Sequence record: SRR20825006_1074
Length of the DNA stretch: 64,000 bases
Reading direction: 5' to 3' (one strand)
A program made the translations under genes and the position numbers. Numbering within the stretch: the first letter of the stretch is position 1; every line of letters begins with the position of its first letter. Below, in pieces: positions 14,347 to 36,007 of this stretch. The notes beneath the pieces are model-generated. The model saw only the letters and a list, made by a program, of their open reading frames with translations, was not told the origin of the DNA and searched no databases.

Positions 14347-15114
14347 TTACCCCGTCACCTTCGGGCGCAGCACATGCGGCATTTTCGGATCATAGAGCGC
14401 ACTGTCTTTGAAATCCGCGACCTCGCCCAAGGCGGGCCCAACAAGGATCAAGGCGGTTCGGGTGATTTTCGCGTCGCGCGCTTTTTCTCGAATGTCGCTC
14501 AACGTGCCACGGATCAACATCTGATCCGGCCAGCCGACACGATACGCTACGGCAACGGGGCAATCCGCGCCGTAATAGGGCACCAATTGCCGTTCGATTT
14601 CACGCAGGTTGCGAATGCCCAGATGGATCGCCAAGGTTGCCCCGGTTTTGGCGAAATTCTCAAGCGTTTCACCCTTAGGCATTGACGTGGATTTCATCGA
14701 CACGCGGGTCAGGATGATGCTTTGCGCGATCTCCGGTATGGTCAATTCCTGCCCCAAAGCGGCGGCGGCGGCGGCATAGGCGGGCACGCCGGGGATGATC
14801 TCATAGTCAATCCCATCGGCGCGCAGACGTCGAATTTGCTCGGCAATTGCACCGTACAAAGATGGGTCTCCACTGTGCACACGGGCAACATTAAATCCAT
14901 TTTCATGTGCCATTTTGATTTCGGCATGGGTGTCATCCAGCGTCATCGGTGCCGTATCCAAAACCCGCGCGCCCTTGGGGGCACAGGCCACCACCTCTGC
15001 GGGGACCAAAGAGCCCGCATACAAACAAACCGGACATTCACCGATGATCCGCTCGGCCTTTTTGGTCAAAAGCTCTGGGTCACCCGGCCCCGCGCCAATA
15101 AAGAAAACAGTCAT
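14347..15114 (-). CDS. cobM: precorrin-4 C11-methyltransferase
   Basis: FIGAGPGDPELLT, YAGSLV, RVHSGDPSLYGAIAEQ. Confidence 0.95.
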   Translation of the reverse strand: MTVFFIGAGPGDPELLTKKAERIIGECPVCLYAGSLVPAEVVACAPKGARVLDTAPMTLDDTHAEIKMAHENGFNVARVHSGDPSLYGAIAEQIRRLRADGIDYEIIPGVPAYAAAAAALGQELTIPEIAQSIILTRVSMKSTSMPKGETLENFAKTGATLAIHLGIRNLREIERQLVPYYGADCPVAVAYRVGWPDQMLIRGTLSDIREKARDAKITRTALILVGPALGEVADFKDSALYDPKMPHVLRPKVTG

Positions 15115-16925
15115 GCGAGGTCTCCATCAATTTTGCGCGCATAGCCACGCGACGTATACATCCGCGGGCCTTCGCCAAGCTGGGCAAGGCGGGAATTGGA
15201 CGAGCCAATGAGTACGACGGTCAGCATATCGACCTCATCCACCTTCAAGTCCTCCAAACGACGATAACGGACATATTCCGTCGGCCGCCCAAGGTTCGAC
15301 GCCAACATCACCGGCGTGTCTGCCGGGCGATGCTGGAGCAAAATATCCCGCGCCTCGGCCAAAAGCGTGCGGCGTTTTTTCGATACCGGATTGTAGAAGG
15401 CGATGACAAAATCGCCCTCTGCCGCCGCCTTGAGGCGGCGAACAATATCCGCCCGTGGGGTCAAAAGATCCGACAGAGAGATGGCGCAGAAATCATGCCC
15501 CAAAGGCGCACCCGCGCGCGCTGCGGCCCCTTGCAGCGCCGAAACACCCGGCGAACAAATCACCTCAACGCGGTGAGCCGCGTCCGATACGCCATGGTCT
15601 TCCGGGTCGCGATCCAGCAGCTCAAACACCAGTGCGCCCATGGCATAAATGCCCGCATCTCCCGAACACACCAGCGCAACATTTTTGCCCTTGGCGGCCT
15701 GTTCCAACGCATAGCGACACCGATCCTCTTCGCCACCCAACGGGAAATCGGAACGGATCTTGCCAACCGCCAACGGCCCCAAAAGATCAATATAGAGGCC
15801 ATATCCAACGAGTTCTTCAGCCTCTGCGACAAGTTTGGACACTTCCGGCGTGCGCCATGCCGCCTGCCCCGGACCGATCCCAACCACGGACAAACGTCCA
15901 CGCGGACGGCCATTGAGCGCGGTGATCACGTCCGTCGAGACCGCCAAGGACGCAGTGGCCATCGCGCTTTTGATCTTCGGCTCGGCCAAACTAACTTTCG
16001 CGCCACCACAGGCCAGAGCGGCGTTTTCGGCCACGCCATGGGTGCCAATTTCCGCAAACACCACCTCAGAACTGGTGGCGCATCGCGGCGTCTCGGCCTC
16101 AAGCTCAAGCGCCGTGAACAGGCGCAGCGGAACATCATAGGATGCAGCCAAGGCCAAGATCGCCGGTTCGTCCGCCTTCAAATCCACGGTCGCAATCGCC
16201 GCCAATGCCTTCGGCGAGATATTGGCCTTTTGCAACAGCGCGCCAACCAGATCGGCAAGCTCCTCAGGTGGGCAATTGCGCGAACAACCAACGCCCAAAA
16301 CGTAGCGCTGCGGGTGATACACAAGCGTTGTATTGCCGGGCGCAGATACATCCTGCACGGTACAGATCAACTCGGCCCCCTCAGCCTGCGAAACATCCGC
16401 CAGCCATATAGCTGTCTCCGCCTCATCGCCCGTCACCGTCGCCCCCCCATGGGCCAACATTGCGGCCATGGTCGATTTGGCATTTTCTGGATTGCCCAAG
16501 CGCCACCCAAGCGGCGGTTCGTCCAAAGCGATGCCCATCGACACGTCGCCCGCCGTCGTGATCGCCGCTTTGGCACCCAGCACCTGCGCGATCTCCAAGG
16601 CCAGCCGATTGGCCCCGCGATGCCCACCCAAAAGCGGCACAACGACTGATCCGTCATCGGAGACCGAAATCACCGGTGGTTCGGTCTTTTTATTTGAGAG
16701 CAGGGGGGCCACGGCGCGGATCAGGATGCCCGAGGCACACACACCAATCACCGGAACGCCTGCCGCAAACAAGGTGCGCACATGGTCTAACGCATTGGCA
16801 AATCTGATCTTTGCCTCTGTGCGCCCCTCGCGTCCGTGGAGTTCAAAACCAAAGGCAACGGCAATGCGGGCGGCGGTCTTTTCGCCGGATGCGTTGAGTG
16901 CGATGACAACCGGGCTCACAGCCAT
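15111..16925 (-). CDS. cobJ: CbiG-CobJ fusion (precorrin-3B C17-methyltransferase with N-terminal CbiG domains)
   Basis: N-terminal LLGGHRGAN/ITTA and GVGC...GVAENAAL (CbiG); C-terminal VVGIGPG, SGDAGIY, HDFCAISLSDLLTP, FYNPVS. Confidence 0.93.
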   Translation of the reverse strand: MAVSPVVIALNASGEKTAARIAVAFGFELHGREGRTEAKIRFANALDHVRTLFAAGVPVIGVCASGILIRAVAPLLSNKKTEPPVISVSDDGSVVVPLLGGHRGANRLALEIAQVLGAKAAITTAGDVSMGIALDEPPLGWRLGNPENAKSTMAAMLAHGGATVTGDEAETAIWLADVSQAEGAELICTVQDVSAPGNTTLVYHPQRYVLGVGCSRNCPPEELADLVGALLQKANISPKALAAIATVDLKADEPAILALAASYDVPLRLFTALELEAETPRCATSSEVVFAEIGTHGVAENAALACGGAKVSLAEPKIKSAMATASLAVSTDVITALNGRPRGRLSVVGIGPGQAAWRTPEVSKLVAEAEELVGYGLYIDLLGPLAVGKIRSDFPLGGEEDRCRYALEQAAKGKNVALVCSGDAGIYAMGALVFELLDRDPEDHGVSDAAHRVEVICSPGVSALQGAAARAGAPLGHDFCAISLSDLLTPRADIVRRLKAAAEGDFVIAFYNPVSKKRRTLLAEARDILLQHRPADTPVMLASNLGRPTEYVRYRRLEDLKVDEVDMLTVVLIGSSNSRLAQLGEGPRMYTSRGYARKIDGDLA

Positions 16926-17632
16926 GGATCGGCCCCTTTCACGATGAGGATCATAGAAAAATACGGCGCCTTTTCAGGCGCTTGTGACAGTGGCAGAACC
17001 ACCTCATGAGGCGTTGAGGCCCGTTCGATATAGACAGCTTCCTCAGTCAGGCCCGCCGTCTCAATCGCCGCGCGCACGCGGGCAAAATGGCGGCCGAGTT
17101 TCATCACCACAAGAGTGTCAGCGCCGTGCAGCACATCCATCGGATGTCCGCCCTCCATGCGTGCGACAAGTTCCGGCGCAGGCAGGATGGTGACCACCTC
17201 ATTGCGCGCCGCCATCGGCACTCCCGCCACTGCGGCACAGGTGGTCACAGAGGTCACGCCAGGCACCACCTCAACCGCATAGTCGCGTTTGAGGCGGGCG
17301 AAAAGATACATGAACGAACCGTAGAAAAACGGATCCCCCTCACACAAAACAACCACATCCTCGCCCGCATCCAATGCAGATCGGATCGCATTCGCGCCGA
17401 TGTCATAAGCGGCCTGTGCGGGGGCGCGGTCCACCGTCATCGGCACATCCATGACAATCTCGCGTGTGCCCTTGGGAATATATGCCGCCGCAATCGAGCG
17501 GGCAAAAGACTCACCACCTGCTAGGGTCGGATAGGCGATCACTTTGGCCTCGCCAATCAGGCGGGCGGCTTTGAGCGTCATCAACTCCGGGTCGCCGGGG
17601 CCAAGGCCGATGCCATAAACTGTCCCGCTCAT
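16916..17632 (-). CDS. cobI: precorrin-2 C20-methyltransferase
   Basis: YGIGLGPGDPELMTLKA, EGDPFFYGSF, PYFS. Confidence 0.95.
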   Translation of the reverse strand: MSGTVYGIGLGPGDPELMTLKAARLIGEAKVIAYPTLAGGESFARSIAAAYIPKGTREIVMDVPMTVDRAPAQAAYDIGANAIRSALDAGEDVVVLCEGDPFFYGSFMYLFARLKRDYAVEVVPGVTSVTTCAAVAGVPMAARNEVVTILPAPELVARMEGGHPMDVLHGADTLVVMKLGRHFARVRAAIETAGLTEEAVYIERASTPHEVVLPLSQAPEKAPYFSMILIVKGADPWL

Positions 17633-18843
17633 GGGGCGCACCCTCCTTTGGTAAGGCTCCATTGGGTGACCGGCATGAACGGCTTCCAGCCCGAAAGAGA
17701 ACCCACAGGTTTAGCGCGCGCCACCGCCATGCGGGTCAGATCACCACCAAATTCGCTGCGCAGCGCAATCAACAGGGCCTCACCTTCCAGCGTCACCGCA
17801 TTGGCAACCAGTCGTCCAAATGGGGCGAGAGCATTCCATGCAGCCTCAAACACAGCGCGCGTCAAACCGCCGCCGATGAACACCGCATCGGGCGGTGGCA
17901 GATCGGCAAGGCCTTCGGGCGCTGTGGCGTCAATCAGTTTGAGACCCGGCGTGCCTAGGGCCAGCGCGTTTTGCACCGCCAAGGCGCGGCGATCGGCGCG
18001 GCATTCGATCCCGATGGCACGGGCATCCCGCGCCGCGCGCATCCACTCAATCGCGACCGAGCCAGAGCCACATCCGATGTCCCATAGCAACGCACCGCGT
18101 CTTGGCGCGAGTTTGGCCAGAGTGACGACACGGACCTCTTGCTTGGTCATATTTCCGTCAGAGACAAAGGCGCTGTCAGGCAAGCCGAAGCGCGGCAAAG
18201 GCGCTGCAGTCTCCTCGGCGATGCACTCGACCGCAAGTGTGTGAAAGTCAGGCACATCATGGGGCCAGCTTGAGGCCATGCCATCAAAGCGGACCTCGTC
18301 TGTGCCTCCCATATGCGCCAAAACACTCAAACGCGAAGGGCCAAATCCACGATCCCTCAAAATAGAAGATATTTCTCGCGGTGAATCGTGGCCTTGTGTC
18401 AAAATAAGCATTTTTTGACCGGGCCTTAGAAAGGGGATGATTTGCTCTGCCGGGCGTCCGTGCACGGTCAATGTTTCCACATTCGCAAGCGACCAGCCCA
18501 TACGCGCCGCAGCGAGTTGAAAGGCCGAAAGTTGTGGGTGGTACAAGATTTCAGCCGGGTCAATGTCTCGCCCGATGCGCGCACCGACCGAATACCAAAG
18601 CGGATCGCCCGTCGCGAACACCACCACGCGACGCCCCCGTAGATCGCGCAACTCGTCAATCAGGGCGTTGAACGGTGAAGGCCACGCCCGGCGTTCACCT
18701 TTGAGTGAAGGGGTGAGCGCATGGTGACGCGCCGCGCCAAAAATCACCTCGGCATCCGCAAGTACGCTACGCGTGGCGGCGCTCAGGCTCTCCAATCCAT
18801 CGTCGCCGATACCGATGATGTGAAGCCATTTCGACATGCTCAT
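17629..18843 (-). CDS. cobL: precorrin-6Y C5,15-methyltransferase (decarboxylating), CbiE/CbiT
   Basis: ATGDPLWY, MTKQEVR, WDIGCGSGSV, DAVFIGGG, NAVTLE. Confidence 0.94.
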   Translation of the reverse strand: MSMSKWLHIIGIGDDGLESLSAATRSVLADAEVIFGAARHHALTPSLKGERRAWPSPFNALIDELRDLRGRRVVVFATGDPLWYSVGARIGRDIDPAEILYHPQLSAFQLAAARMGWSLANVETLTVHGRPAEQIIPFLRPGQKMLILTQGHDSPREISSILRDRGFGPSRLSVLAHMGGTDEVRFDGMASSWPHDVPDFHTLAVECIAEETAAPLPRFGLPDSAFVSDGNMTKQEVRVVTLAKLAPRRGALLWDIGCGSGSVAIEWMRAARDARAIGIECRADRRALAVQNALALGTPGLKLIDATAPEGLADLPPPDAVFIGGGLTRAVFEAAWNALAPFGRLVANAVTLEGEALLIALRSEFGGDLTRMAVARAKPVGSLSGWKPFMPVTQWSLTKGGCAP

Positions 18844-19478
18844 TCGCCGATCTCCGGCAATCCCACAGCCAGTGCATTCACCGCCGCCGAAGCGATAGCC
18901 GAACCACCGCGACGCCCCCGCAACGCGACAAAATCGCACCCCCTCGGGTTACCCGCCAATTCGGCTTTAGATTCCGCCGCACCGACAAACCCCACCGGAA
19001 ATCCAAGGATGACGGCGGGTTTGGGCGCGCCTTGGTCGATCAGCTCCAATAAGTGAAACAGCGCGGTCGGGGCATTGCCAATGGCAACAACGGCCCCGTC
19101 CAAATACGGTTCCCACAGCTCAACAGCAGCGGCAGAGCGGGTGTTGCCGATCTCTTTGGCACGTTCTGGCGTGCGTGGATCATTGAGGGTGACGATCACC
19201 TGATTGCCGGCGGGAAGGTAGCGACGGATGATGCCCGCGCCGACCATTTCGCAATCGCACAGGATCGGCGCACCCGCTTTCAGTGCCGCATGGCCAACCG
19301 CATAGGCATCGGGTGAAAAAGCCAAGCGATCCGCCACCTCAACCATGCCGCAGGCGTGGATCAGGCGGATCGCAAGGCGTTCCATTCCGGCGTCAAACCG
19401 ATCCAACCGCGCCTCTTTGCGCACGGTGGCAAAGCTTTGCGCATAGATCGACTGCGGGTCTTTGTCATAGGGGCGCAC
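18840..19478 (-). CDS. cobH: precorrin-8X methylmutase
   Basis: IYAQSF, TRSAAA, IGNAPTAL, PVGFVGAAESK, GRRGGSA. Confidence 0.96.
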   Translation of the reverse strand: MRPYDKDPQSIYAQSFATVRKEARLDRFDAGMERLAIRLIHACGMVEVADRLAFSPDAYAVGHAALKAGAPILCDCEMVGAGIIRRYLPAGNQVIVTLNDPRTPERAKEIGNTRSAAAVELWEPYLDGAVVAIGNAPTALFHLLELIDQGAPKPAVILGFPVGFVGAAESKAELAGNPRGCDFVALRGRRGGSAIASAAVNALAVGLPEIGE

Positions 19479-19483
19479 CGGGA

Positions 19484-20791
19484 TCAGACCTTAGACTTGC
19501 GCGCGGATTCGGGTCCGTGCGGGTGCTTGGCGTGGGGGTATTCCGGGTGGACGTGATCATGGGAGTGGCCATGGTCATGATGGTCATGATGATGATCGTG
19601 GTCATGGCCGTGGATATGGCTGTGTGCATGACCGTGGCTATGGTCATGATCATGGGTGTGGCCATGAGTGTGATTGTGATGATGGTGCACATGCGCGGTT
19701 TTTTCCAACCGACAAAGCCCCGTACAGAACGTATCGCAAAGCGCACAATCGGCCACGTTTGAACCGGGGGCAGAGGCGCCTTGGCCTTCGACATGGTGGT
19801 GGTGGCTTTCTTGCACCGTACCGACCTCGGCCTCAAACCCAAGCACCTGTGTGCGGTATTTGCACAGCACACAAGTCGGCGGCGGCACATCGCCAAAAGC
19901 CGGATGGCCCTTGCCGTTTTCACGCGCCGCGGCGCGCTCTTTTGGGGTGATTTGACGGGCCTGTTGACCTTCGATCGCAAGCACTTGGGTGCGATAGGCA
20001 CAGATGCCACAGTTCGGGATCGGCACGTCGCCGTCCTGTTCCAATACCCGTTCCGCAAAGGTTTGCAGCACTTTCGGGTGATCATTCAGATAGCCGGCTT
20101 TAACGAATTGAATGTCGGCATGCTCAGCCGCAACTTGGTCGGTGAAACCGTAAATCCGGTCGATCAGGATACCGGTGAAGAGGAAATACGGAAACACGAT
20201 GACGCGTTTGTAGCCGAGTTTCGACACATGTTGCAGGCAGGGTTCGACAAGCGGAAACGTAACACCGGAATAGCCGACCTCGCACCAGCCAAAACCCATG
20301 CCCTCCCACAACATCCGCGCGATTTTCGAGACGTTGCCATTGGCGTCTGGATCAGACGCGCCGCGCCCGATGACGACCAAGGCGGTCTCATGCAGCGGCA
20401 ATTCACCCAACTCTGCATTGGCCCGGTCCACTGCTTCGCGTACCCGCGCACCGGCGGCGGCGATCATCTTGGGATCAACGCCCAATTCGCGACCATAGCT
20501 GACGGTGATGCCATGTTTGGCGGCATAGGTGTTGAGCACGGTCGGGATGTCATTTTTCGCATGCATCGCGGCAAACAACATGCCCGGAACGGCCAAAATA
20601 CGCTCGCAGCCAGCCTCACGCAGACGGTCCAAACCATCACGGATCACCGGATTGGCGAACTCAAGATAGCCGTAATCCACCATCCAATCCGCGGGCAACA
20701 GGGCGGGAAGTTTCTCTGCCAAAACGGCAAATTCGTCCACGGCGGCCTGGCTGCGCGAGCCATGGCCACAAATCATCACACCAGTTTTCAT
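19484..20791 (-). CDS. cbiX: sirohydrochlorin cobaltochelatase, long form with Cys/His-rich tail
   Basis: CGHGSR, GYLEFANP, HAKNDIP, GRGASDPDAN, PYFLFTG; C-terminal CxxC motifs and poly-His. Confidence 0.92.
   Translation of the reverse strand: MKTGVMICGHGSRSQAAVDEFAVLAEKLPALLPADWMVDYGYLEFANPVIRDGLDRLREAGCERILAVPGMLFAAMHAKNDIPTVLNTYAAKHGITVSYGRELGVDPKMIAAAGARVREAVDRANAELGELPLHETALVVIGRGASDPDANGNVSKIARMLWEGMGFGWCEVGYSGVTFPLVEPCLQHVSKLGYKRVIVFPYFLFTGILIDRIYGFTDQVAAEHADIQFVKAGYLNDHPKVLQTFAERVLEQDGDVPIPNCGICAYRTQVLAIEGQQARQITPKERAAARENGKGHPAFGDVPPPTCVLCKYRTQVLGFEAEVGTVQESHHHHVEGQGASAPGSNVADCALCDTFCTGLCRLEKTAHVHHHHNHTHGHTHDHDHSHGHAHSHIHGHDHDHHHDHHDHGHSHDHVHPEYPHAKHPHGPESARKSKV
19553..19692 (-). 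repeat. low-complexity His-codon repeat encoding the CbiX His-rich tail
   Basis: Runs of CAT/CAC/GAC/GAT giving HVHHHHNHTHGHTHDHDHSHGHAHSHIHGHDHDHHHDHHDHGHSHDH. Confidence 0.85.
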
Positions 20792-20797
20792 CTTAAA

Positions 20798-21013
20798 TTA
20801 TGCCTCCTGCGGCTCAGCCTCATGGTCGGGGTCTGCCGCCTCTGGCTCTTGTTTTTTGCCTTTGATAGCCCCCCAAATGGCGGTCGCAATCGCGCCGCCA
20901 ATCAAAACACCCGCAAGCCAATGGTTGTGACCTGCGGCCTCGGCGATATGGCCTGGATGGGCCAGCGCAGGGGCGGCAAAAAATGTAAGCGTGAGCGTCA
21001 TAGCGCGAAACAT
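20798..21013 (-). CDS. small membrane protein with signal peptide and HPGH N-terminus (DUF6732-like)
   Basis: 71 aa; PALA-HPGH...GHNH, one TM helix; AAGGA SD; stop 6 nt before cbiX. Confidence 0.8.
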   Translation of the reverse strand: MFRAMTLTLTFFAAPALAHPGHIAEAAGHNHWLAGVLIGGAIATAIWGAIKGKKQEPEAADPDHEAEPQEA

Positions 21014-21029
21014 GTCATATCCTTGTCGT

Positions 21030-21157
21030 TATGCCCGAATGGGGCGGTCGTGGTTCAAGGAGGCTGGGACACTTGACGATGCTGCGCGCAATCCCCGGTT
21101 TGGGTCGATCCGCCACTGCCAACCTCTCTGGCCCCGTATCGGGGCGTCGTCATAGGT
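21030..21157 (-). ncRNA. candidate structured cis-regulatory leader RNA of the cbiX-cob operon
   Basis: Several stems including a pseudoknot-like pairing (see findings); lies between a putative TTGCGC-N17-TATAGA promoter and the SD. Confidence 0.45.
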
Positions 21158-21310
21158 CTCATCTATAGGCCGAGGGCACAGAGCGCGCAAATGCTTTAGC
21201 GCCAACGGGTTGGGACAAATGTGCACAATCGCACCATTCCTGCGCTCTCACACCTGTTTGCGCGCGAACCTGGAGTGTTTAGGGTGCACAGGGAACATGA
21301 GGAGGCCCCT

Positions 21311-22285
21311 ATGGGACATTTAAAAGACGGTATCTGGCATGACGAATGGTACGACACATCGAAGTCAGGCGGCCGGTTTGAACGCAGCTCAGCGGGCTTT
21401 CGCAACTGGATCACGCCCGATGGCGCGGCGGGACCCTCCGGCAAGGGTGGGTTTGAGGCCGAGGCCGGGCGCTATCACCTCTATGTCTCTTATGCTTGTC
21501 CGTGGGCCCATCGCACTCTGATTTTTCGGGCGTTAAAAGGCCTCGAAGAGCTGATTTCCGTCTCCGTTGTTCACCCCGATATGCTGAGCGATGGCTGGAC
21601 CTTTGCGCAGGATTTCCCCGGCACCACGGGGGACGCCCTCTTTGGCAAGCCTTTCCTGCGCGATATTTATACCGAAGCCGACCCCGGCCTGTCGGGGCGC
21701 GTTACTGTGCCGATTCTCTGGGACAAAAAACGGGACACGATTGTCTCAAACGAATCCTCTGAAATCATCCGCATGTTCAATTCGGCCTTTGATGCGATCA
21801 CTGGAAACACCCATGATTTCTGGCCCCTCGCCCTGCGTGACGAGATCGAAACGGTAAATGCCCGCATCTATGACACGATCAACAATGGCGTCTATAAGGC
21901 CGGGTTTGCCACCACGCAAAAGGCCTATGACGCCGCCATTGCGCCGCTGTTCGACAGTCTCGATTGGCTCGAAACCCATCTCTCGGAGAATCGCTATCTC
22001 ATGGGAGAGCAGGTGACCGAAGCGGATTGGCGATTGTTCACCACCCTCATCCGGTTTGACAAGGTCTACCACGGCCACTTCAAATGCAACAAACGCATGG
22101 TAAAAGACTACCCCGCCGTTTGGGCCTACACACGCGCGCTTTATCAATGGCCGGGGGTGCGCGAGACGGTGAATTTCGATCATATCGTGCGTCACTATTA
22201 CTATAGCCACGATACGATCAACCCGCATCGGATTGTGCCGGTCACACCGGATTTGGATTTTGATGCGCCGCATGGGCGGGGCTGA
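21311..22285 (+). CDS. glutathionyl-hydroquinone reductase (YqjG/omega-type GST)
   Basis: RYHLYVSYACPWAHR, RVTVPILWD, NESSEI, INNGVYKAGFA; GGAGG SD. Confidence 0.93.
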   Translation: MGHLKDGIWHDEWYDTSKSGGRFERSSAGFRNWITPDGAAGPSGKGGFEAEAGRYHLYVSYACPWAHRTLIFRALKGLEELISVSVVHPDMLSDGWTFAQDFPGTTGDALFGKPFLRDIYTEADPGLSGRVTVPILWDKKRDTIVSNESSEIIRMFNSAFDAITGNTHDFWPLALRDEIETVNARIYDTINNGVYKAGFATTQKAYDAAIAPLFDSLDWLETHLSENRYLMGEQVTEADWRLFTTLIRFDKVYHGHFKCNKRMVKDYPAVWAYTRALYQWPGVRETVNFDHIVRHYYYSHDTINPHRIVPVTPDLDFDAPHGRG

Positions 22286-29932: not shown

Positions 29933-30024
29933 TTTGGTGCTCACCTTCTCTGCGCATAGCCATAGAAAGTCTATGCAGAAGGTTAAAGCACTTGACCCAA
30001 CACAAGCCAATGCGCCAAATAGGG

Positions 30025-30226
30025 GCGTTATGGTTCCCCATCACGACGCCAAGCGTTTAGGGGAGAAATGGGAATGTGGTGCGCGAGACCCAAATCGGGG
30101 CGCAAAACCACAGCCGCCCCCGCGACTGTAAGCGGTGAGTGCCCGTCGACATGCCACTGGAACACCCTGTTCTGGGAAGGTGACGAAGGCGCTTTGACCC
30201 GCGAGCCAGGAAACCTGCCGTGACCT
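30025..30226 (+). ncRNA. cobalamin (AdoCbl) riboswitch
   Basis: GGGAATGTGGTG...AAAACCACAGCCGCCCCCGCGACTGTAAGCGG...GCCACTG...GGGAAGG...GAGCCAGGAAACCTGCC (B12 box); P1 GTTATGG/CCGTGAC; upstream of a cobalt transporter. Confidence 0.95.
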
Positions 30227-30271
30227 CATACCAACCCGCCGTCGGGGATGACGGCCTAGGAGGACTTGTCG

Positions 30272-30946
30272 ATGCATATCGAACCCGGAATCGTCACTGG
30301 CGCAAAAATTGCGCTGTCTTATGCCACTGCCGCTGGTGCTGGCCTCTACACTCTCAAACAATCCATCACCGCATTGAGCGAAAAAGGCGTGGCCTCTTTT
30401 GCGGCCCGCGCAGCGCTCTCAACAGCGGCTGTATTTACCTTTTTCCAAGTGCTGCCGCATCACGCGGTTGGCGTGTCTGAGGTCCATTTGATCCTCGGCT
30501 CCACGCTGTTCTTGCTGTTCGGTGCGGCCCCTGCCGCGCTTGGTTTGGCCCTTGGCCTTTTGGCGCAGGGCCTGTTCTTTGCCCCCTTCGATCTGCCGCA
30601 ATACGGCATGAATGTCACCACCCTGCTCGTACCGCTCTTTGGCATCAAAGCCGTCGCAGAGCGCATTATCGCACCGGGCACCGCCTATGCCGATATCAGC
30701 TACAAGCAAGCCCTCGCACTCTCAACCACCTATCAAGCCGGGATCGTGGCATGGGTTGGTTTCTGGGCATTTTACGGCCAAGGGGTCTCCGCCACCACAC
30801 TGGCCTCCGTCGGCACATTCGGTGCGGCTTACATGACCGTCATCTTGATCGAACCGTTGGTGGATTTGGCCGTTTTGGCCGGGGCAAAAACGATCAAAGG
30901 TCTGGGTAACTCCGGCCTCGTGTCGCCGCGCACCTTGGCCGCCTGA
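30272..30946 (+). CDS. CbiM/NikM-like ECF S-component cobalt transporter
   Basis: MHIEPG N-terminus, VSEVHLILG, about 7 TM segments; AGGAGG SD; under the B12 riboswitch. Confidence 0.85.
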   Translation: MHIEPGIVTGAKIALSYATAAGAGLYTLKQSITALSEKGVASFAARAALSTAAVFTFFQVLPHHAVGVSEVHLILGSTLFLLFGAAPAALGLALGLLAQGLFFAPFDLPQYGMNVTTLLVPLFGIKAVAERIIAPGTAYADISYKQALALSTTYQAGIVAWVGFWAFYGQGVSATTLASVGTFGAAYMTVILIEPLVDLAVLAGAKTIKGLGNSGLVSPRTLAA

Positions 30947-30969
30947 GACCGCTCATTTCAATGATTTCG

Positions 30970-31006
30970 CGCCGGGGCTCGGGACATCCTGTGGCCCCGG
31001 CGTTTT
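30970..31006 (+). terminator. hairpin / possible weak terminator between cbiM-like gene and cobW
   Basis: CGCCGGGGC...GCCCCGGCG followed by TTTT. Confidence 0.5.
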
Positions 31007-31023
31007 CATAAAGGACATCTAAA

Positions 31024-32073
31024 ATGGCTGCGAAAATTCCAGCAACGGTTGTGACCGGCTTTCTTGGCGCGGGCAAAACCACTCTCATTCGTCACATGTT
31101 GGCCAACGCGGGTGGCAAACGCATCGCTTTGATTATCAACGAATTTGGTGATCTGGGCGTCGACGGTGACATCCTCAAAGGCTGTGGCGACGAGACCTGC
31201 ACCGAGGACGACATCATGGAGCTTTCGAATGGCTGCATCTGCTGCACGGTCGCGGAGGATTTCATCCCGACGATGCAAAAACTATTGGAACGGGACAATA
31301 AACCCGACCATATCGTGATTGAAACATCCGGCCTCGCCCTGCCGCAACCTTTGGTGCGCGCGTTCAATTGGCCGGAGATTTCGACCAAAGTCACCGTCGA
31401 TGGTGTGATCACCGTGGTGGATGGCAAGGCGGTTGATGAGGGCCGGTTCGCCCATAATGTCGCCGCCGTTGATGCCCAGCGCAAACTCGACGAAAACCTA
31501 GATCACGAAACCCCGCTCTCTGAGCTGTTCGAAGATCAAATCGCCTGTGCCGATATGATCGTAGTGAACAAAGCCGACCTTTTGGGCGAAGATCACGCCG
31601 ACGCTTTGGTTGCCAAACTCAAAGGCGAGGCACGCGGCGGTGTTCAGGTTGTGCGCGCAAGCATGGGCGTGTTGCCGATTGATGTTTTGCTGGGTCAGGG
31701 AATCGGATCAGAGGGCGATATGGACGCACGCGGCGAGGTGCATCATCATCACCACGATGATGAGGACGACGATCACCACCATCATGATCATGACGAGTTT
31801 GAAAGCTTTGTCGTCACGCGCGGCGAGATCAAAGACCCCAAGGCCTTTGCCCGTCAAATCGCCGAGGTGATCCGCGCCCATGACATCCTGCGCCTCAAGG
31901 GATTCGTGGCGGTCGAGGGCAAACCGATGCGCCTCACCGTTCAGGCCGTTGGCCCCCGCGTCGATCACTATTTCGACCAACCCTTTGGCACCGCGCCGCG
32001 GGATACGCGGCTGGTCGTCATTGGCGAAGCGGGCCTTGATCGCCTGTCAATCGAGACCGCGCTGAGTGCCTAA
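31024..32073 (+). CDS. cobW: cobalamin biosynthesis GTPase / cobalt chaperone CobW
   Basis: TGFLGAGKTT, NEFG, GCICC, IETSGLALPQPL, NKAD, His-rich insert. Confidence 0.96.
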   Translation: MAAKIPATVVTGFLGAGKTTLIRHMLANAGGKRIALIINEFGDLGVDGDILKGCGDETCTEDDIMELSNGCICCTVAEDFIPTMQKLLERDNKPDHIVIETSGLALPQPLVRAFNWPEISTKVTVDGVITVVDGKAVDEGRFAHNVAAVDAQRKLDENLDHETPLSELFEDQIACADMIVVNKADLLGEDHADALVAKLKGEARGGVQVVRASMGVLPIDVLLGQGIGSEGDMDARGEVHHHHHDDEDDDHHHHDHDEFESFVVTRGEIKDPKAFARQIAEVIRAHDILRLKGFVAVEGKPMRLTVQAVGPRVDHYFDQPFGTAPRDTRLVVIGEAGLDRLSIETALSA

Positions 32074-32092
32074 ATGATAAGAGAAAAGCGGC

Positions 32093-32260
32093 TTACTTGT
32101 CGCTTTTCTTTGCCTCAGCCGCCGCTTTCATCCGGGCCAAAAGCTCCGCCTTGGGCGTCTTTGTCCCATAGGGGTTTTTCGATGTCCCCTTGGCGTTATG
32201 TTCATCATGCTTCGGTGCGTTCTTGCCACGTTTTGGGGCGCCCATTTTACCATAATCCAT
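32093..32260 (-). CDS. small basic protein, 55 aa (not in ORF track)
   Basis: AGGAG SD then ATG 32260: MDYGKMGAPKRGKNAPKHDEHNAKGTSKNPYGTKTPKAELLARMKAAAEAKKSDK; occupies the cobW-cobN gap. Confidence 0.7.
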   Translation of the reverse strand: MDYGKMGAPKRGKNAPKHDEHNAKGTSKNPYGTKTPKAELLARMKAAAEAKKSDK

Positions 32261-32329
32261 TGAGGGGTCTCCTGAGAGTTTCCCCGCTCATGACGCAAGA
32301 CGCGCGGTAAGACAAGGAAAGAGAAAGCG

Positions 32330-35300
32330 ATGCACCTGCTCGCGGCCACCCCCGGCTCCATTGATGATGGCAAAGACGCGGTCGATCTGGGGCAAACCCC
32401 CGCCGATCTGGTGGTGATTTCCGCCGCAGATACCGAGCTTGCCCTGCTCTCAGAGGCACGCAGTACAATGGCTGCGCCCCCCGCGATGCGCTTGGCTTCG
32501 ATGTTACATTTGCGTCACCCGATGTCGGTCGACATGCATCTGGATGACTGCGCCACCAAATCCAAACTGGTGATTGCACGGGTGCTCGGCGGATCGGGTT
32601 ATTGGAAATACGGCTTGGAGCAATATGCCGCGCGGCTCTATGAGGCGGGCGTGCCTTTCGTCGCCCTGCCCGGTGATGACAAACCCGACGCGGAACTGGC
32701 CGCCTTGTCGACGATCCCGACAGAGGATTACCACCAACTTTGGGCCTATCTGACCGAAGGTGGCGCGGAAAATGCGGTGGCGTTCTTGACCTACGCGCGT
32801 GCCTTGATCGACGGTGGCGACAGGCCCGGCCCCGCCAAACCGCTGTTGCGGGCAGGACTCTATTGGCCTGGCAATGGGATAGCTGACCTAGATCAGATAA
32901 AGTCGCAGTGGCAAGAGGGTGCGCCCGTGGTACCGCTGATCTTTTATCGTGCTCTGGTACAGGGAGCGGGGCTTGCGCCGATAAACCGCTTGGTGAAGTC
33001 GCTGTTGCGCCAGGGGTTGAACCCGATGCCGATCTTTGTCGCCTCACTGAAAGATCCAATTTCTGCCGCCACATTAGAAGCGCTGTTTTTAGACGCCCCG
33101 CCGGACGTGATCCTCAACTGCACCGCCTTCGCGGTCGGCACGCCCGATGGCGGCGGCCCGGACAATCCCCTCGCCGCCCCTTCGGCCAATCAGGCACCGG
33201 TGTTCCAAGTCGTGCTTGCGGGCTCGTCGCATGAGGCATGGGAGGCGGGCACCACGGGACTTTCCGCCCGCGATATTGCGATGAACGTCGCCCTGCCCGA
33301 AATTGATGGTCGCATTCTGTCGCGTGCTGTCTCATTCAAAGGCGAGGCTTATTTTGACGCCGCCACCGAATGCACCATCGCCACCTATCATGCGGACGGA
33401 TCGCGCATTGCTTTTGTTGCGGAACTGGCCGCCCGCTGGGCCCATCTGCGCCGCGCCGACAAGGCAGACCGCAAACTGGCGCTGATCCTCGCCAACTATC
33501 CAAATAAGGATGGGCGTTTGGCCAATGGTGTTGGCCTCGACACACCCGCCGCCACGGTGAACACCCTCAAAGCGCTCTCCAGTCAGGGCTACTCAGTCGA
33601 GGGCGTACCGGATGACAGCGATGCCTTGATGCAGGCGATTTTGTCAGGTCCAACCAATTGGCTGACAGATCGCTCCATACGTGAGGGCGGTGTGCGCTTG
33701 TCACTCGATGCGTATAAAAGCGCATATAATTCTATCCCTTACGAGGCCCGGCAAGAGATTGAAGCGCGTTGGGGTCCCCCCGAAGACGATCCGTTTGTGG
33801 GGCAAGATGGCTTTGCGCTTTCTGTGCTACGTTATGGCAACGCGGTCGTCGGAATCCAGCCCGCGCGCGGGTATAACATTGACCCGACCGAGACCTATCA
33901 CGCCCCTGACCTTGTGCCGCCACACAATTATCTGGCCTTCTACTTTTGGCTCCGTTTTGAATTTGGCGCCGACGCGTTGGTCCATATGGGCAAACATGGC
34001 AATCTCGAATGGCTGCCCGGCAAGGCGCTTGCGCTCTCGGAGACCTGTTATCCCGAGGTCATCATGGGACCGATGCCGCATCTTTATCCGTTTATCGTCA
34101 ACGATCCGGGCGAGGGCACACAGGCCAAACGCCGCGCCCAAGCGGTGATCTTGGATCACCTCACCCCGCCTTTGACCCGTGCCGAAACCTACGGCCCACT
34201 GCGTGATCTTGAGGCTCTGGTGGACGAGTATTTCGAAGCCGCGGGCGTCGATCCGCGCCGCATCGCCAGCCTACGAAAAGAAATTTTGAGCCTCTCCTCC
34301 GTAACCGGACTGGACCACGACGTCGGCATGACCGGACGCGATGAGGACGGCGATCTGGCGAAACTTGATGCCTACCTGTGTGAACTGAAAGAAGCGCAAA
34401 TCCGCGATGGGTTGCACATCTTTGGCACCGCTCCCGAAGGCCGTTTGGCGCGGGATTTGGGTCTGGCTTTGGTGCGTGTGCCTCGGGGCAACGGCACGGG
34501 GGCTGATGCCTCCTTTGTGCGGGCTTTGGCTCTGGATTTGGGCCTTAACTTTGATCCGCTCGACTGTGACATGGCCGCACCATGGGAGGGGCCGAAACCC
34601 AATTGCCTGACTAAAGTCAGCAATTCAAATTGGCGCAGTCATGGCGACACCGTTGAGCGATTGGAGCTGTTGTGTGCAACCCTTTTAGATGAGCAAGCTG
34701 ACGCCCCCGGCCCTGCCTCAGCTTTGGTGTTGGCGCATCTGCGCGATACCGTTTTGCCCACGGTGACGGCCTGTGGCCCCGCCGAGATGTCCGCGCTTTT
34801 AACCGGTCTTGACGGTCGGTTTATTCCCCCCGGCCCCTCAGGTGCCCCCACACGCGGGCGGTTGGATGTTCTGCCCACCGGGCGCAACTTTTTCTCTGTC
34901 GATGCCCGCGCCGTGCCAACACAGACCGCATGGCAACTCGGGTGGAAATCGGCCAATCTTTTGATTGAACGGCATTTGCAGGACCAAGGCGACTGGCCGC
35001 GCGCGATGTTGGTCACTGCTTGGGGCACCGCCAATATGCGCACGGGCGGAGACGACATTGCGCAGGCTTTGGCGCTGATGGGGGTCAAGCCGACATGGGA
35101 TGCGATGTCGCGCCGCGTCACCGGGTTTGAAATCCTACCGGCTTCGGTTTTGGGCCGTCCGCGCGTGGATGTGACGCTCAGGGTTTCCGGCTTTTTCCGC
35201 GATGCCTTTCCGCAACTGATCGCGCTGGTCGATAGTGCTGCGCGCGCGGTTCAGGCCTTGGACGAATCTGATGCGGACAATCCCGCCGCAGCGCGGGCGC

Positions 35301-36007
35301 GCAGGGGCGCAAGCACGGCGCGGGTGTTTGGATCAAAACCCGGTGCTTACGGCGCAGGACTTCAGGCAATGATCGACGAGAGGATTTGGGACAACCGATC
35401 CGATCTGGCCGATGCCTATTTGGAATGGGGCGGCTATACCTATGGCGCGGGACAAGAGGGCGTGAAGGATCGCGCCGGATTTGCCGCACGCCTGTCCGAA
35501 GTCGAAGCCATCGTGCAAAACCAAGACAACCGCGAGCACGACCTGTTGGACAGTGACGATTACTACCAATTTGAGGGTGGTGCAGCGGCAGCGGTCGCGA
35601 CATTACAGGGGCAAGATCGACCGATCTATCACAACGACCATTCCCGCCCCGAACGCCCGGTGATCCGCACATTGGACGAAGAAATCGGCCGGGTGATCCG
35701 CTCGCGCGTGGTCAATCCGAAATGGATCGACGGGGTCAAACGCCATGGCTACAAGGGCGCCTTTGAAATCGCCGCCACGGTCGATTACCTCTTTGCCTTT
35801 TCGGCCACGACCCATGCGGTCAAGGACCACCATTTCGATCACGTATACGGCGCCTTCATTGAGGATAACGTGACCCGCACATTTATTGCGGATCACAACG
35901 CGCCTGCGCTCAAAGAGATCGCAGAGCGGCTTTTGGAGGCCATAGAACGTGGGCTTTGGCAGCCTCGATCCAATTCAGCCCGCGCACTGTTGGAGGGACT
36001 CGCATGA
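32330..36007 (+). CDS. cobN: cobaltochelatase large subunit
   Basis: MHLLAATPG, ALPEIDG, HMGKHGNLEWLPGK, DGLH, LPTGRNF, NPKWIDGVKRHGYKGA; 1225 aa. Confidence 0.97.
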   Translation: MHLLAATPGSIDDGKDAVDLGQTPADLVVISAADTELALLSEARSTMAAPPAMRLASMLHLRHPMSVDMHLDDCATKSKLVIARVLGGSGYWKYGLEQYAARLYEAGVPFVALPGDDKPDAELAALSTIPTEDYHQLWAYLTEGGAENAVAFLTYARALIDGGDRPGPAKPLLRAGLYWPGNGIADLDQIKSQWQEGAPVVPLIFYRALVQGAGLAPINRLVKSLLRQGLNPMPIFVASLKDPISAATLEALFLDAPPDVILNCTAFAVGTPDGGGPDNPLAAPSANQAPVFQVVLAGSSHEAWEAGTTGLSARDIAMNVALPEIDGRILSRAVSFKGEAYFDAATECTIATYHADGSRIAFVAELAARWAHLRRADKADRKLALILANYPNKDGRLANGVGLDTPAATVNTLKALSSQGYSVEGVPDDSDALMQAILSGPTNWLTDRSIREGGVRLSLDAYKSAYNSIPYEARQEIEARWGPPEDDPFVGQDGFALSVLRYGNAVVGIQPARGYNIDPTETYHAPDLVPPHNYLAFYFWLRFEFGADALVHMGKHGNLEWLPGKALALSETCYPEVIMGPMPHLYPFIVNDPGEGTQAKRRAQAVILDHLTPPLTRAETYGPLRDLEALVDEYFEAAGVDPRRIASLRKEILSLSSVTGLDHDVGMTGRDEDGDLAKLDAYLCELKEAQIRDGLHIFGTAPEGRLARDLGLALVRVPRGNGTGADASFVRALALDLGLNFDPLDCDMAAPWEGPKPNCLTKVSNSNWRSHGDTVERLELLCATLLDEQADAPGPASALVLAHLRDTVLPTVTACGPAEMSALLTGLDGRFIPPGPSGAPTRGRLDVLPTGRNFFSVDARAVPTQTAWQLGWKSANLLIERHLQDQGDWPRAMLVTAWGTANMRTGGDDIAQALALMGVKPTWDAMSRRVTGFEILPASVLGRPRVDVTLRVSGFFRDAFPQLIALVDSAARAVQALDESDADNPAAARARRGASTARVFGSKPGAYGAGLQAMIDERIWDNRSDLADAYLEWGGYTYGAGQEGVKDRAGFAARLSEVEAIVQNQDNREHDLLDSDDYYQFEGGAAAAVATLQGQDRPIYHNDHSRPERPVIRTLDEEIGRVIRSRVVNPKWIDGVKRHGYKGAFEIAATVDYLFAFSATTHAVKDHHFDHVYGAFIEDNVTRTFIADHNAPALKEIAERLLEAIERGLWQPRSNSARALLEGLA

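Follow-up and report, generated by a model that had tools for sequence, protein, structure and literature searches.

The RNA leader of a cob operon on the minus strand of the window, the term used here for the whole stretch of 64,000 nucleotides analyzed (SRR20825006_1074), is almost certainly a conserved, structured cis-regulatory RNA (about 21155-21014). It represents a family that is absent from Rfam 15 and, so far as found, limited to the Alphaproteobacteria, mainly the Rhodobacteraceae. The best overall reading, which we consider probable, is that of a candidate for a new riboswitch class that would control translation through a strand complementary to the Shine-Dalgarno (SD) sequence of the first gene.

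Anatomy of the leader and its transcript

The intergenic region between a divergent GST-like gene (plus strand, ORF 21221-22285, with an ATG near 21311) and the cob operon holds the leader on its minus strand. The original prediction, made from the sequence alone, had proposed a promoter of the form TTGCGC-N17-TATAGA, and its elements are seen in the sequence as a -35-like hexamer TTGCGC (21190-21185), a spacer of 17 nt and a -10-like hexamer TATAGA (21167-21162), all on the minus strand. The pattern is conserved, as TTGNNN-N16-18-TA[TG][AG]NN ends 6-10 nt before helix P1 in 68 of 89 distinct upstream regions, compared with 0.36 for shuffles, and the spacer is 17 in 60 of the regions that bear it. 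A generic sigma-70 scan of the leader region returned no promoter because it misses TATAGA, in which the last base is not T. Given a conserved promoter 6-10 nt before P1, the transcript should begin a few bases before this helix, near 21155, and we infer a transcription start at about 21158-21152.

RNA evidence was available as contigs assembled from RNA runs. Those of two studies extend from the operon across the leader to 21136 and to 21142, where the second has a loose, adapter-like end; a third contig of low depth reaches 21216 and a contig of a relative spans everything. These contigs, which join the leader to the gene, suggest weakly that the mRNA includes the leader and has its 5' end near the predicted start and not downstream of the stems, in agreement with the earlier placement of the stems within the transcript. 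The uncovered interval 21158-21312 in runs X2 and X3 is by itself no evidence for a transcript end. Upstream of the promoter, at about 21215-21290, a second genus-conserved block was observed (..GCGCAAACAGG.GTGAGAGCGCAG....GGTGCG....TGCACA.., with the palindrome TGTGCACA), which may be bound by a transcription factor or serve the divergent GST-like gene as its promoter.

The sequence comparisons described below support the folding of minus-strand positions 21152-21056 into a predicted three-way junction of helices P1, P2 and P3 with a pseudoknot (J2/3:tail), the three helices and the pseudoknot making up a core of about 100 nt. P1 joins UGACGA (21152-21147) to UCGUCA (21079-21074), the pairing parts being (U)GACGA and UCGUC(A), and P2 is the hairpin GCCCCG-AUA-CGGGGC (21145-21131), recovered by covariation and by RNAalifold; both stems are as originally described. 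The next segment is J2/3 (CAGAGAGGUUG, 21130-21120), a purine-rich junction strand with the family consensus CCRGAnnGGU that would form the 5' strand of the pseudoknot and act as the anti-anti-SD. It leads into the long hairpin P3 (21119-21081), with a variable base (21119-21116/21084-21081) and a nearly invariant top, GAUC-GA-CCC-AAACC-GGG-GAUU (21110-21090). The original prediction had positioned the top of this hairpin correctly but had drawn the hairpin too short, omitting the base.

The 3' strand of the pseudoknot would be supplied by the pyrimidine strand CCAGCCUCCUUG (21067-21056), located 3' of P1. An 8-bp pairing of GAGGUUGG (21126-21119) with CCAGCCUC (21067-21060), with one U-G wobble, had been proposed at these positions; the positions stand, but the helix is longer, being extended by CAG (21130-21128) with UUG (21058-21056). 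The same pyrimidine strand contains the anti-SD sequence UCCUUG (21061-21056), complementary to the SD sequence CAAGGA (21025-21020) that precedes the ATG start codon of the first gene (21013-21011). The loop of an anti-SD:SD pairing would enclose the hairpin GCCC-CAUUC-GGGC (21045-21033), seen in the sequence 5' of the SD where it had been reported. The sequence of this hairpin is variable among relatives and, being without a U-tract on its 3' side, it was rejected as a terminator.

Conservation, covariation and the pseudoknot

The thermodynamics of the single sequence are unremarkable, with a minimum free energy of -48 kcal/mol, a z-score of -0.94 and 33 of 200 shuffles that fold equally well, whereas comparison between relatives strongly exceeds chance. 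Of 61 relatives searched at the DNA level, 25 carried a homologue of the leader, and 24 of these are among the 33 genomes of the same genus. The best-kept part extended exactly from P1 to P1', with less conserved flanks. In a MAFFT alignment of 21 syntenic intergenic regions, invariant blocks were located between stems that vary yet stay paired, and unguided RNAalifold returned P2, the P3 top and the long-range helix CAG.GAGGUUGG with CCAGCCUC.CUUG. In the genus-level alignment 95.8% of cells pair, against 31-50% in slid controls, and the covariation score of 0.205 (0.110 when shuffled) was reached by 0 of 500 shuffles.

The family-level test employed 95 sequences (92 distinct) aligned to a covariance model. 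Pairing was found in 95.6% of cells compared with 82.3% after shuffling and 33-56% with slid partners, both sides had changed in 18 of 22 pairs, and a covariation score of 0.385 versus 0.146 was reached by 0 of 500 shuffles, statistics that overstate significance in that alignment to a covariance model favors the structure built into it and relatedness among the sequences inflates the comparison with shuffles. In P1, four of five pairs had changed on both sides and 99.3% of cells pair among the 92 distinct sequences, with variants that included GACGA/UCGUC, AACGA/UCGUU, GACGG/CCGUC, GCCGA/UCGGC and GAGAG/CUCUC. Changes on both sides were also observed in five of the six P2 pairs, all four pairs of the P3 base and five of the seven pairs of the P3 top, where three C-G pairs are essentially invariant. 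The near-invariant positions are GCC..GGCC at the P2 base, CCRGAnnGGU in J2/3 and YGACCC-loop-GGGGR in P3. The leader has, in other words, the covarying helices and conserved unpaired nucleotides of a riboswitch aptamer, and the core is kept with covarying P1-P3 in the relatives, where a lack of conservation or covariation would have counted against the original prediction. Frequent steps from C-G to U-G and from G-C to G-U identify the minus strand as the RNA strand.

The pseudoknot required a separate analysis. Within the window's genus the J2/3:tail helix is compatible with pairing in 99.3% of cells, with changes that are one-sided, and between clades its register differs, CCUCUC-type tails going with GAGAGG and YCUCYGG with CCRGAG. 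An anchored test was applied to 107 sequences, in which the longest contiguous run of pairing between J2/3 and its own tail was required to cover the variable R of CCRGA. Runs of at least 6, 7 and 8 were found with own tails in 86, 62 and 40 of the 107 sequences, compared with means of 70.0 +/- 3.2, 45.5 +/- 3.4 and 25.5 +/- 3.3 and maxima of 80, 55 and 36 with foreign tails (200 permutations). The variable R was paired as A-U in 40 cases, G-C in 35 and G-U in 11, and compensations could be recognized by eye, as in CAGAAAGG:CCUUUUUG, GGAAAGG:CCUUUCC, CAGAAAGAAG:CUUCUUUUUG and GAGCGGA:UUCGCUC. Other measures were less pronounced. An exact 6-mer complement of GAnnGG occurred in 14 of 110 own tails versus 9.3 +/- 2.4 when shuffled, which is unconvincing, and RNAduplex energies differed modestly between own (-13.0 kcal/mol) and foreign tails (-11.7 kcal/mol; z -0.86). 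By R class, UCUGG stood at 16/53 versus 5/54 (Fisher 0.008) and UCCGG at 6/53 versus 13/54 (0.13), both values being uncorrected for phylogeny. On these observations we take the J2/3:tail pairing to be real and specific to the leader's own tail, with phylogeny as a caveat.

Gene context and distribution

The first gene (20798-21013, minus strand) encodes a 71-aa DUF6732 protein (PF20506, E 2.9e-28) with a signal peptide, the sequence HPGH..GHNHW and one TM helix. It is followed on the same strand by the 435-aa chelatase CbiX-long (CbiXL; 19484-20791, PF01903, E 7e-48) and by CobH/CbiC, CobL (CbiE-CbiT), CobI, a CbiG-CobJ fusion and CobM (14347-19478). The operon had been labelled cbiX-cobHLIJM in the original prediction, which is right for cbiX-cobH but not for the first gene, DUF6732. 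For this protein, no NCBIfam family was found, no second Pfam family listed at E<=10 came up to its own cutoff, the Atlas gave DUF6732 clusters only, and no paper on it was found in open-access PMC/bioRxiv. In CbiXL, Cys motifs are accompanied by a very long tail rich in His, and the same features are described for Bacillus megaterium CbiXL in a review (PMC7689651).

Several further features of the operon and its surroundings were noted. The DUF6732 protein resembles a HupE/UreJ N-terminus that stands alone, with a signal peptide, AHxGH and a GHxHW/DHLLA-like first TM helix. At one locus of the same genus (L005, G006), the leader and SD block are intact and no match to the window's DUF6732 protein was found; about 150 nt between leader and cbiX do not match, possibly through decay of the small gene. 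Within the coding sequence of DUF6732 (20937-20911, minus strand), one terminator-like hairpin with a short run of T was recorded, probably a chance occurrence (1 versus 0.5 expected). The minus-strand genes at 14347-20791 display features of the early route of cobalt insertion, namely the CbiG-CobJ fusion and a CbiXL with an N-terminal catalytic-type His, Cys motifs and a His-rich tail; the late-insertion chelatase CobN is encoded nearby (32330-36007, plus strand), which suggests a hybrid or dual route. CobG was not found among the window ORFs scanned.

A covariance model built from the genus alignment (R1) was searched in 151 genera of Rhodobacteraceae and found one copy per genome in 38, or 36 after the removal of two false positives, which lay in coding DNA with the expected genes absent downstream (L081 in G070 and L083 in G144). 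CbiXL occurs in 55 of the 151 sampled genomes of the family. When the 1.4 kb upstream of cbiXL was searched with filters off in the 19 CbiXL genomes missed by R1, the motif was found in 14 (E<=0.053), correctly oriented in each, and 13 of the 14 were recovered with default filters. The motif is therefore located before the long cbiX in 49-50 of the 55 cbiXL-carrying genera.

Outside the family, an exact-pattern scan of bacteria and archaea at one genome per species matched at least 120 stretches. Among 80 of these matches, 65 were confirmed by the model, all in Rhodobacteraceae/Paracoccaceae or in alphaproteobacterial/Pseudomonadota MAGs, and the other 15 (Actinomycetota, Nitrosotalea and similar) were not. 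Orthologues of CbiXL are present in 77 of 301 genomes of the class, one of which (G001) is the family's own nearest genome. A second model (R2) identified clear homologues before 4 of 49 cbiXL loci outside the family, in three other alphaproteobacterial families, and no motif at 23 more distant cbiXL loci. A genome-wide R2 search of 151 class genomes returned nothing beyond those loci, the window's relative and a single false match, which lies inside a TetR-like gene and is without the P3 top (G262).

All 123 motif instances precede DUF6732 or CbiXL on the same strand, the next gene being DUF6732 in 81 (strict motif) and CbiXL in 42. In one other family, two loci have the motif, DUF6732 and CbiX in this order; at another locus outside the family CbiX follows the motif directly, and at one distant locus the motif is followed by a HupE/UreJ permease (PF04955, E 2e-54) and then CbiXL. 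This HupE (L208, 491-1465) has weak similarity to DUF6732 (36% over 53 residues, pairwise BLASTP E 0.002), and the aligned part of HupE is its mature N-terminus with the first TM helix. The leader is thus tied exclusively to the DUF6732/HupE-cbiXL-cob operon, and its predicted location in the 5' UTR, its sense orientation and its consistent gene association are those of a riboswitch. CobH identities of about 61-99% in cbiXL genomes versus about 46-62% in those without cbiXL were also observed, a grouping that points to two separate forms of the ring-synthesis operon within the family.

Kinship, mechanism and candidate ligands

Searching the leader region (20950-21350) with cmscan under permissive filters (E<=10) against the 4227 models of Rfam 15 matched no family to the leader, the cobalamin clan included. 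The sole match at this cutoff, to Pab91 on the plus strand (21237-21297, 15.7 bits, E 3.3), is outside the leader and meaningless, far under Pab91's 71-bit threshold. At gathering thresholds nothing was found at the leader in a scan of the whole window, in which the single Rfam 15 match was a cobalamin riboswitch (30014-30236, plus strand, 117 bits). That riboswitch heads a CbiM-like gene, cobW and cobN (30266-36007), and two different leader RNAs divide one B12 gene neighborhood in the window. In open-access PMC/bioRxiv, neither a description of the leader element nor one of a cbiX-linked riboswitch candidate was found, and motif-discovery supplements could hold the element under another name. 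A 26-genome paper presents two other Rhodobacterales motifs and does not use the words cobalamin, cobalt or chelatase (PMC8632094). The original claims of novelty and of an element outside the cobalamin riboswitch family were both supported by the catalogue searches.

Comparison with known RNAs places the leader near several of them in logic or context. Like the cobalamin riboswitch (RF00174/CL00101), it is a 5' leader of genes for cobalt transport and B12 biosynthesis, and the cobalamin riboswitch acts on translation in proteobacteria; the RF00174 model spans about 190 positions compared with a leader core of about 100 nt, and the leader is without a B12 box and without the GCCACUG block. The B12 regulon classically includes HupE-type transporters and cob operons. 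The statement that the leader is not a B12 riboswitch holds as to family membership, and a corrinoid ligand would stay compatible with the sequence. In the Escherichia coli thiM TPP riboswitch, an anti-SD strand is held by an aptamer strand and otherwise covers the SD. The leader would share this three-element logic of aptamer strand, anti-SD and SD, with an unrelated aptamer and ligand and with a junction strand, in a pseudoknot across P1, as its aptamer strand. NiCo riboswitches (czcD motif) form a four-way junction before exporters, mostly in Firmicutes, and are ON switches. The leader resembles them as a cis-acting leader for which Co2+/Ni2+ is a candidate ligand class, but it has no match to their covariance model and its genes serve uptake, chelation and biosynthesis. 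SAM-II, SAM-V and SAM-SAH riboswitches have in common with the leader their alphaproteobacterial hosts, small size and a pseudoknot involving the ribosome-site region; they differ in that no Rfam model of theirs matches, that the leader's context is cob and not met, and that the leader forms a three-way junction.

The mechanism that we infer is translational. The pyrimidine strand 3' of P1 would pair alternately with J2/3, in the pseudoknot, or with the SD of the first gene. Without ligand, J2/3 would hold the anti-SD strand, leaving the ribosome site free and expression ON; with ligand, J2/3 would be drawn into the junction core, and the anti-SD strand would be released to cover the SD. Translation of DUF6732 (elsewhere HupE or CbiXL) would then decrease, and expression of cbiX-cobH-cobL-cobI-cbiG/cobJ-cobM may fall with it by coupling or polarity. 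J2/3 is assigned to the ligand pocket and the tail to the expression platform because J2/3 is far more conserved than its partner strand, which drifts in register and distance and is often located 3' of a variable hairpin. This thiM-like arrangement, in which ligand turns expression off, is slightly favored here, and the opposite sign, in which ligand would lock the pseudoknot and turn expression on, is also credible at somewhat under an even chance.

Evidence for the link to the SD is strongest at the genus level, where all six pairs of UCCUUG with CAAGGA are kept in 21 of 21 sequences and the SD block is unusually invariant. At one locus (L009) both sides have changed, to UCCUUU:AAAGGA, a single compensatory change. 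In nested-model energies for the window, the fold with P1, P2 and P3 and the SD sequestered was at -40.2 kcal/mol, the same helices with the SD free were at -35.5 kcal/mol, and the J2/3:tail fold with the SD free was at -39.4 kcal/mol; the duplexes alone gave -15.5 (J2/3:tail) and -8.1 kcal/mol (anti-SD:SD). The near-isoenergetic values of -40.2 and -39.4 kcal/mol imply states close enough to switch. Across the family the signal is weak, with the J2/3-pairing and SD-pairing tail segments overlapping in 81 of 115 sequences versus 71 expected (z -0.73), and some leaders, such as L050, are too short for an obvious anti-SD. Ribosome-mediated attenuation through a uORF is disfavored: leader-overlapping ORFs differ in frame and length across loci, the terminator scan found no terminator-like hairpin with a U-tract within the leader, and substitutions track base-pairing and not codons.

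The leader is probably a direct sensor of a small molecule or ion. The explanation that it is instead recognized by a protein or a trans-acting RNA, such as an autoregulatory operon product or a metal-responsive RNA-binding factor, is unlikely, although it would suit a small aptamer in which the most invariant part is the small helical P3 element with its GA bulge, three C-G pairs and variable loop. Riboswitches typically show what is seen here, a three-way junction in which the junction strand is conserved and a pseudoknot is coupled to the ribosome site, and no candidate RNA-binding protein is encoded adjacent to the leader in 123 loci. We give still less weight to a constitutive 5' UTR structure that stabilizes the mRNA or tunes its translation without switching. 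The absence of bistability in single-sequence folding beyond the calculated suggestion and the weak family-wide statistics of SD sequestration are consistent with such a structure, but the unpaired J2/3 and P3-bulge nucleotides, invariant in four families, are more than a stability hairpin would require, covariation maintains the complementarity of J2/3 to its own tail, and the leader is strictly linked to a single regulon.

The stems could also be read as palindromic sites of a DNA operator for a transcription factor, given the divergent GST/cob intergenic location and the second conserved block with its TGTGCACA palindrome further upstream. This is highly improbable in view of the G-U intermediates, which would read A-C on the opposite strand (one P3 pair goes from C-G to U-G in 26 sequences), and of stem sequences that vary freely while pairing is kept; moreover, the conserved block begins just 3' of the conserved -10 box.

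For the ligand of the putative riboswitch, gene context favors a corrinoid end product first, followed by Co2+ or a precursor. The controlled set, a metal-handling membrane protein, a His-rich cobaltochelatase-type enzyme and ring-synthesis enzymes, is a classical B12 regulon, which favors a corrinoid and OFF logic, and by this analogy a corrinoid (of the B12 family or a late intermediate) is the foremost candidate, if a tentative one. A ligand outside the groups named here has a lesser, minor share of the probability. Co2+/Ni2+ is somewhat less probable than that; Co2+ suits the His-rich products and would hardly be expected to repress ring synthesis or to induce uptake. An early tetrapyrrole (sirohydrochlorin or precorrin-2), possible as an inducer, is the most doubtful of these options. 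Nothing in the analysis particularly supports SAM. 

With a cobalamin riboswitch already at 30014-30236, a second B12 sensor would not be required in the window. Rfam searches upstream of cbiXL had no match in 19 family loci and 20 class-level loci, and the 5 kb upstream of cobH yielded no cobalamin riboswitch in 20 genomes that lack cbiXL, a result uninformative on the ligand. As no cobalamin riboswitch was found near orthologous cbiXL/cobH, the argument that the same genes elsewhere use another sensor is unsupported here. For the cob cluster of Phaeobacter inhibens, a preprint describes two cobalamin riboswitches, one before cbiM and the other before a large operon that begins with a DUF1636 gene (10.64898/2025.12.19.695462). 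A riboswitch for an early pathway signal and not for adenosylcobalamin, either a metal-free tetrapyrrole or Co2+ that licenses the branch of early cobalt insertion, is an unlikely but consequential variant: marine Rhodobacteraceae would then run RNA sensors for B12 and for a precursor or metal on the two halves of the pathway, and a sensor of a tetrapyrrole precursor (sirohydrochlorin or precorrin-2) would be the first natural riboswitch of its kind.

Rhodobacteraceae (roseobacters) rank among the main sources of vitamin B12 for marine algae, and seawater contains little cobalt. The leader heads the corrin-ring operon at its entry genes, which encode the His-rich chelatase CbiXL and either a His-rich membrane protein or a HupE transporter, and is present in the genomes of at least 120 species, yet it is distinct from the B12 riboswitch known so far. 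Should its ligand be a corrinoid, one of the oldest riboswitch ligands would gain a second structural class; should it be cobalt or a tetrapyrrole precursor, the leader would represent a ligand class that is new and a natural sensor part for engineering of the B12 pathway. In either case, the way in which B12 producers decide to commit cobalt and uroporphyrinogen to the pathway becomes open to testing.
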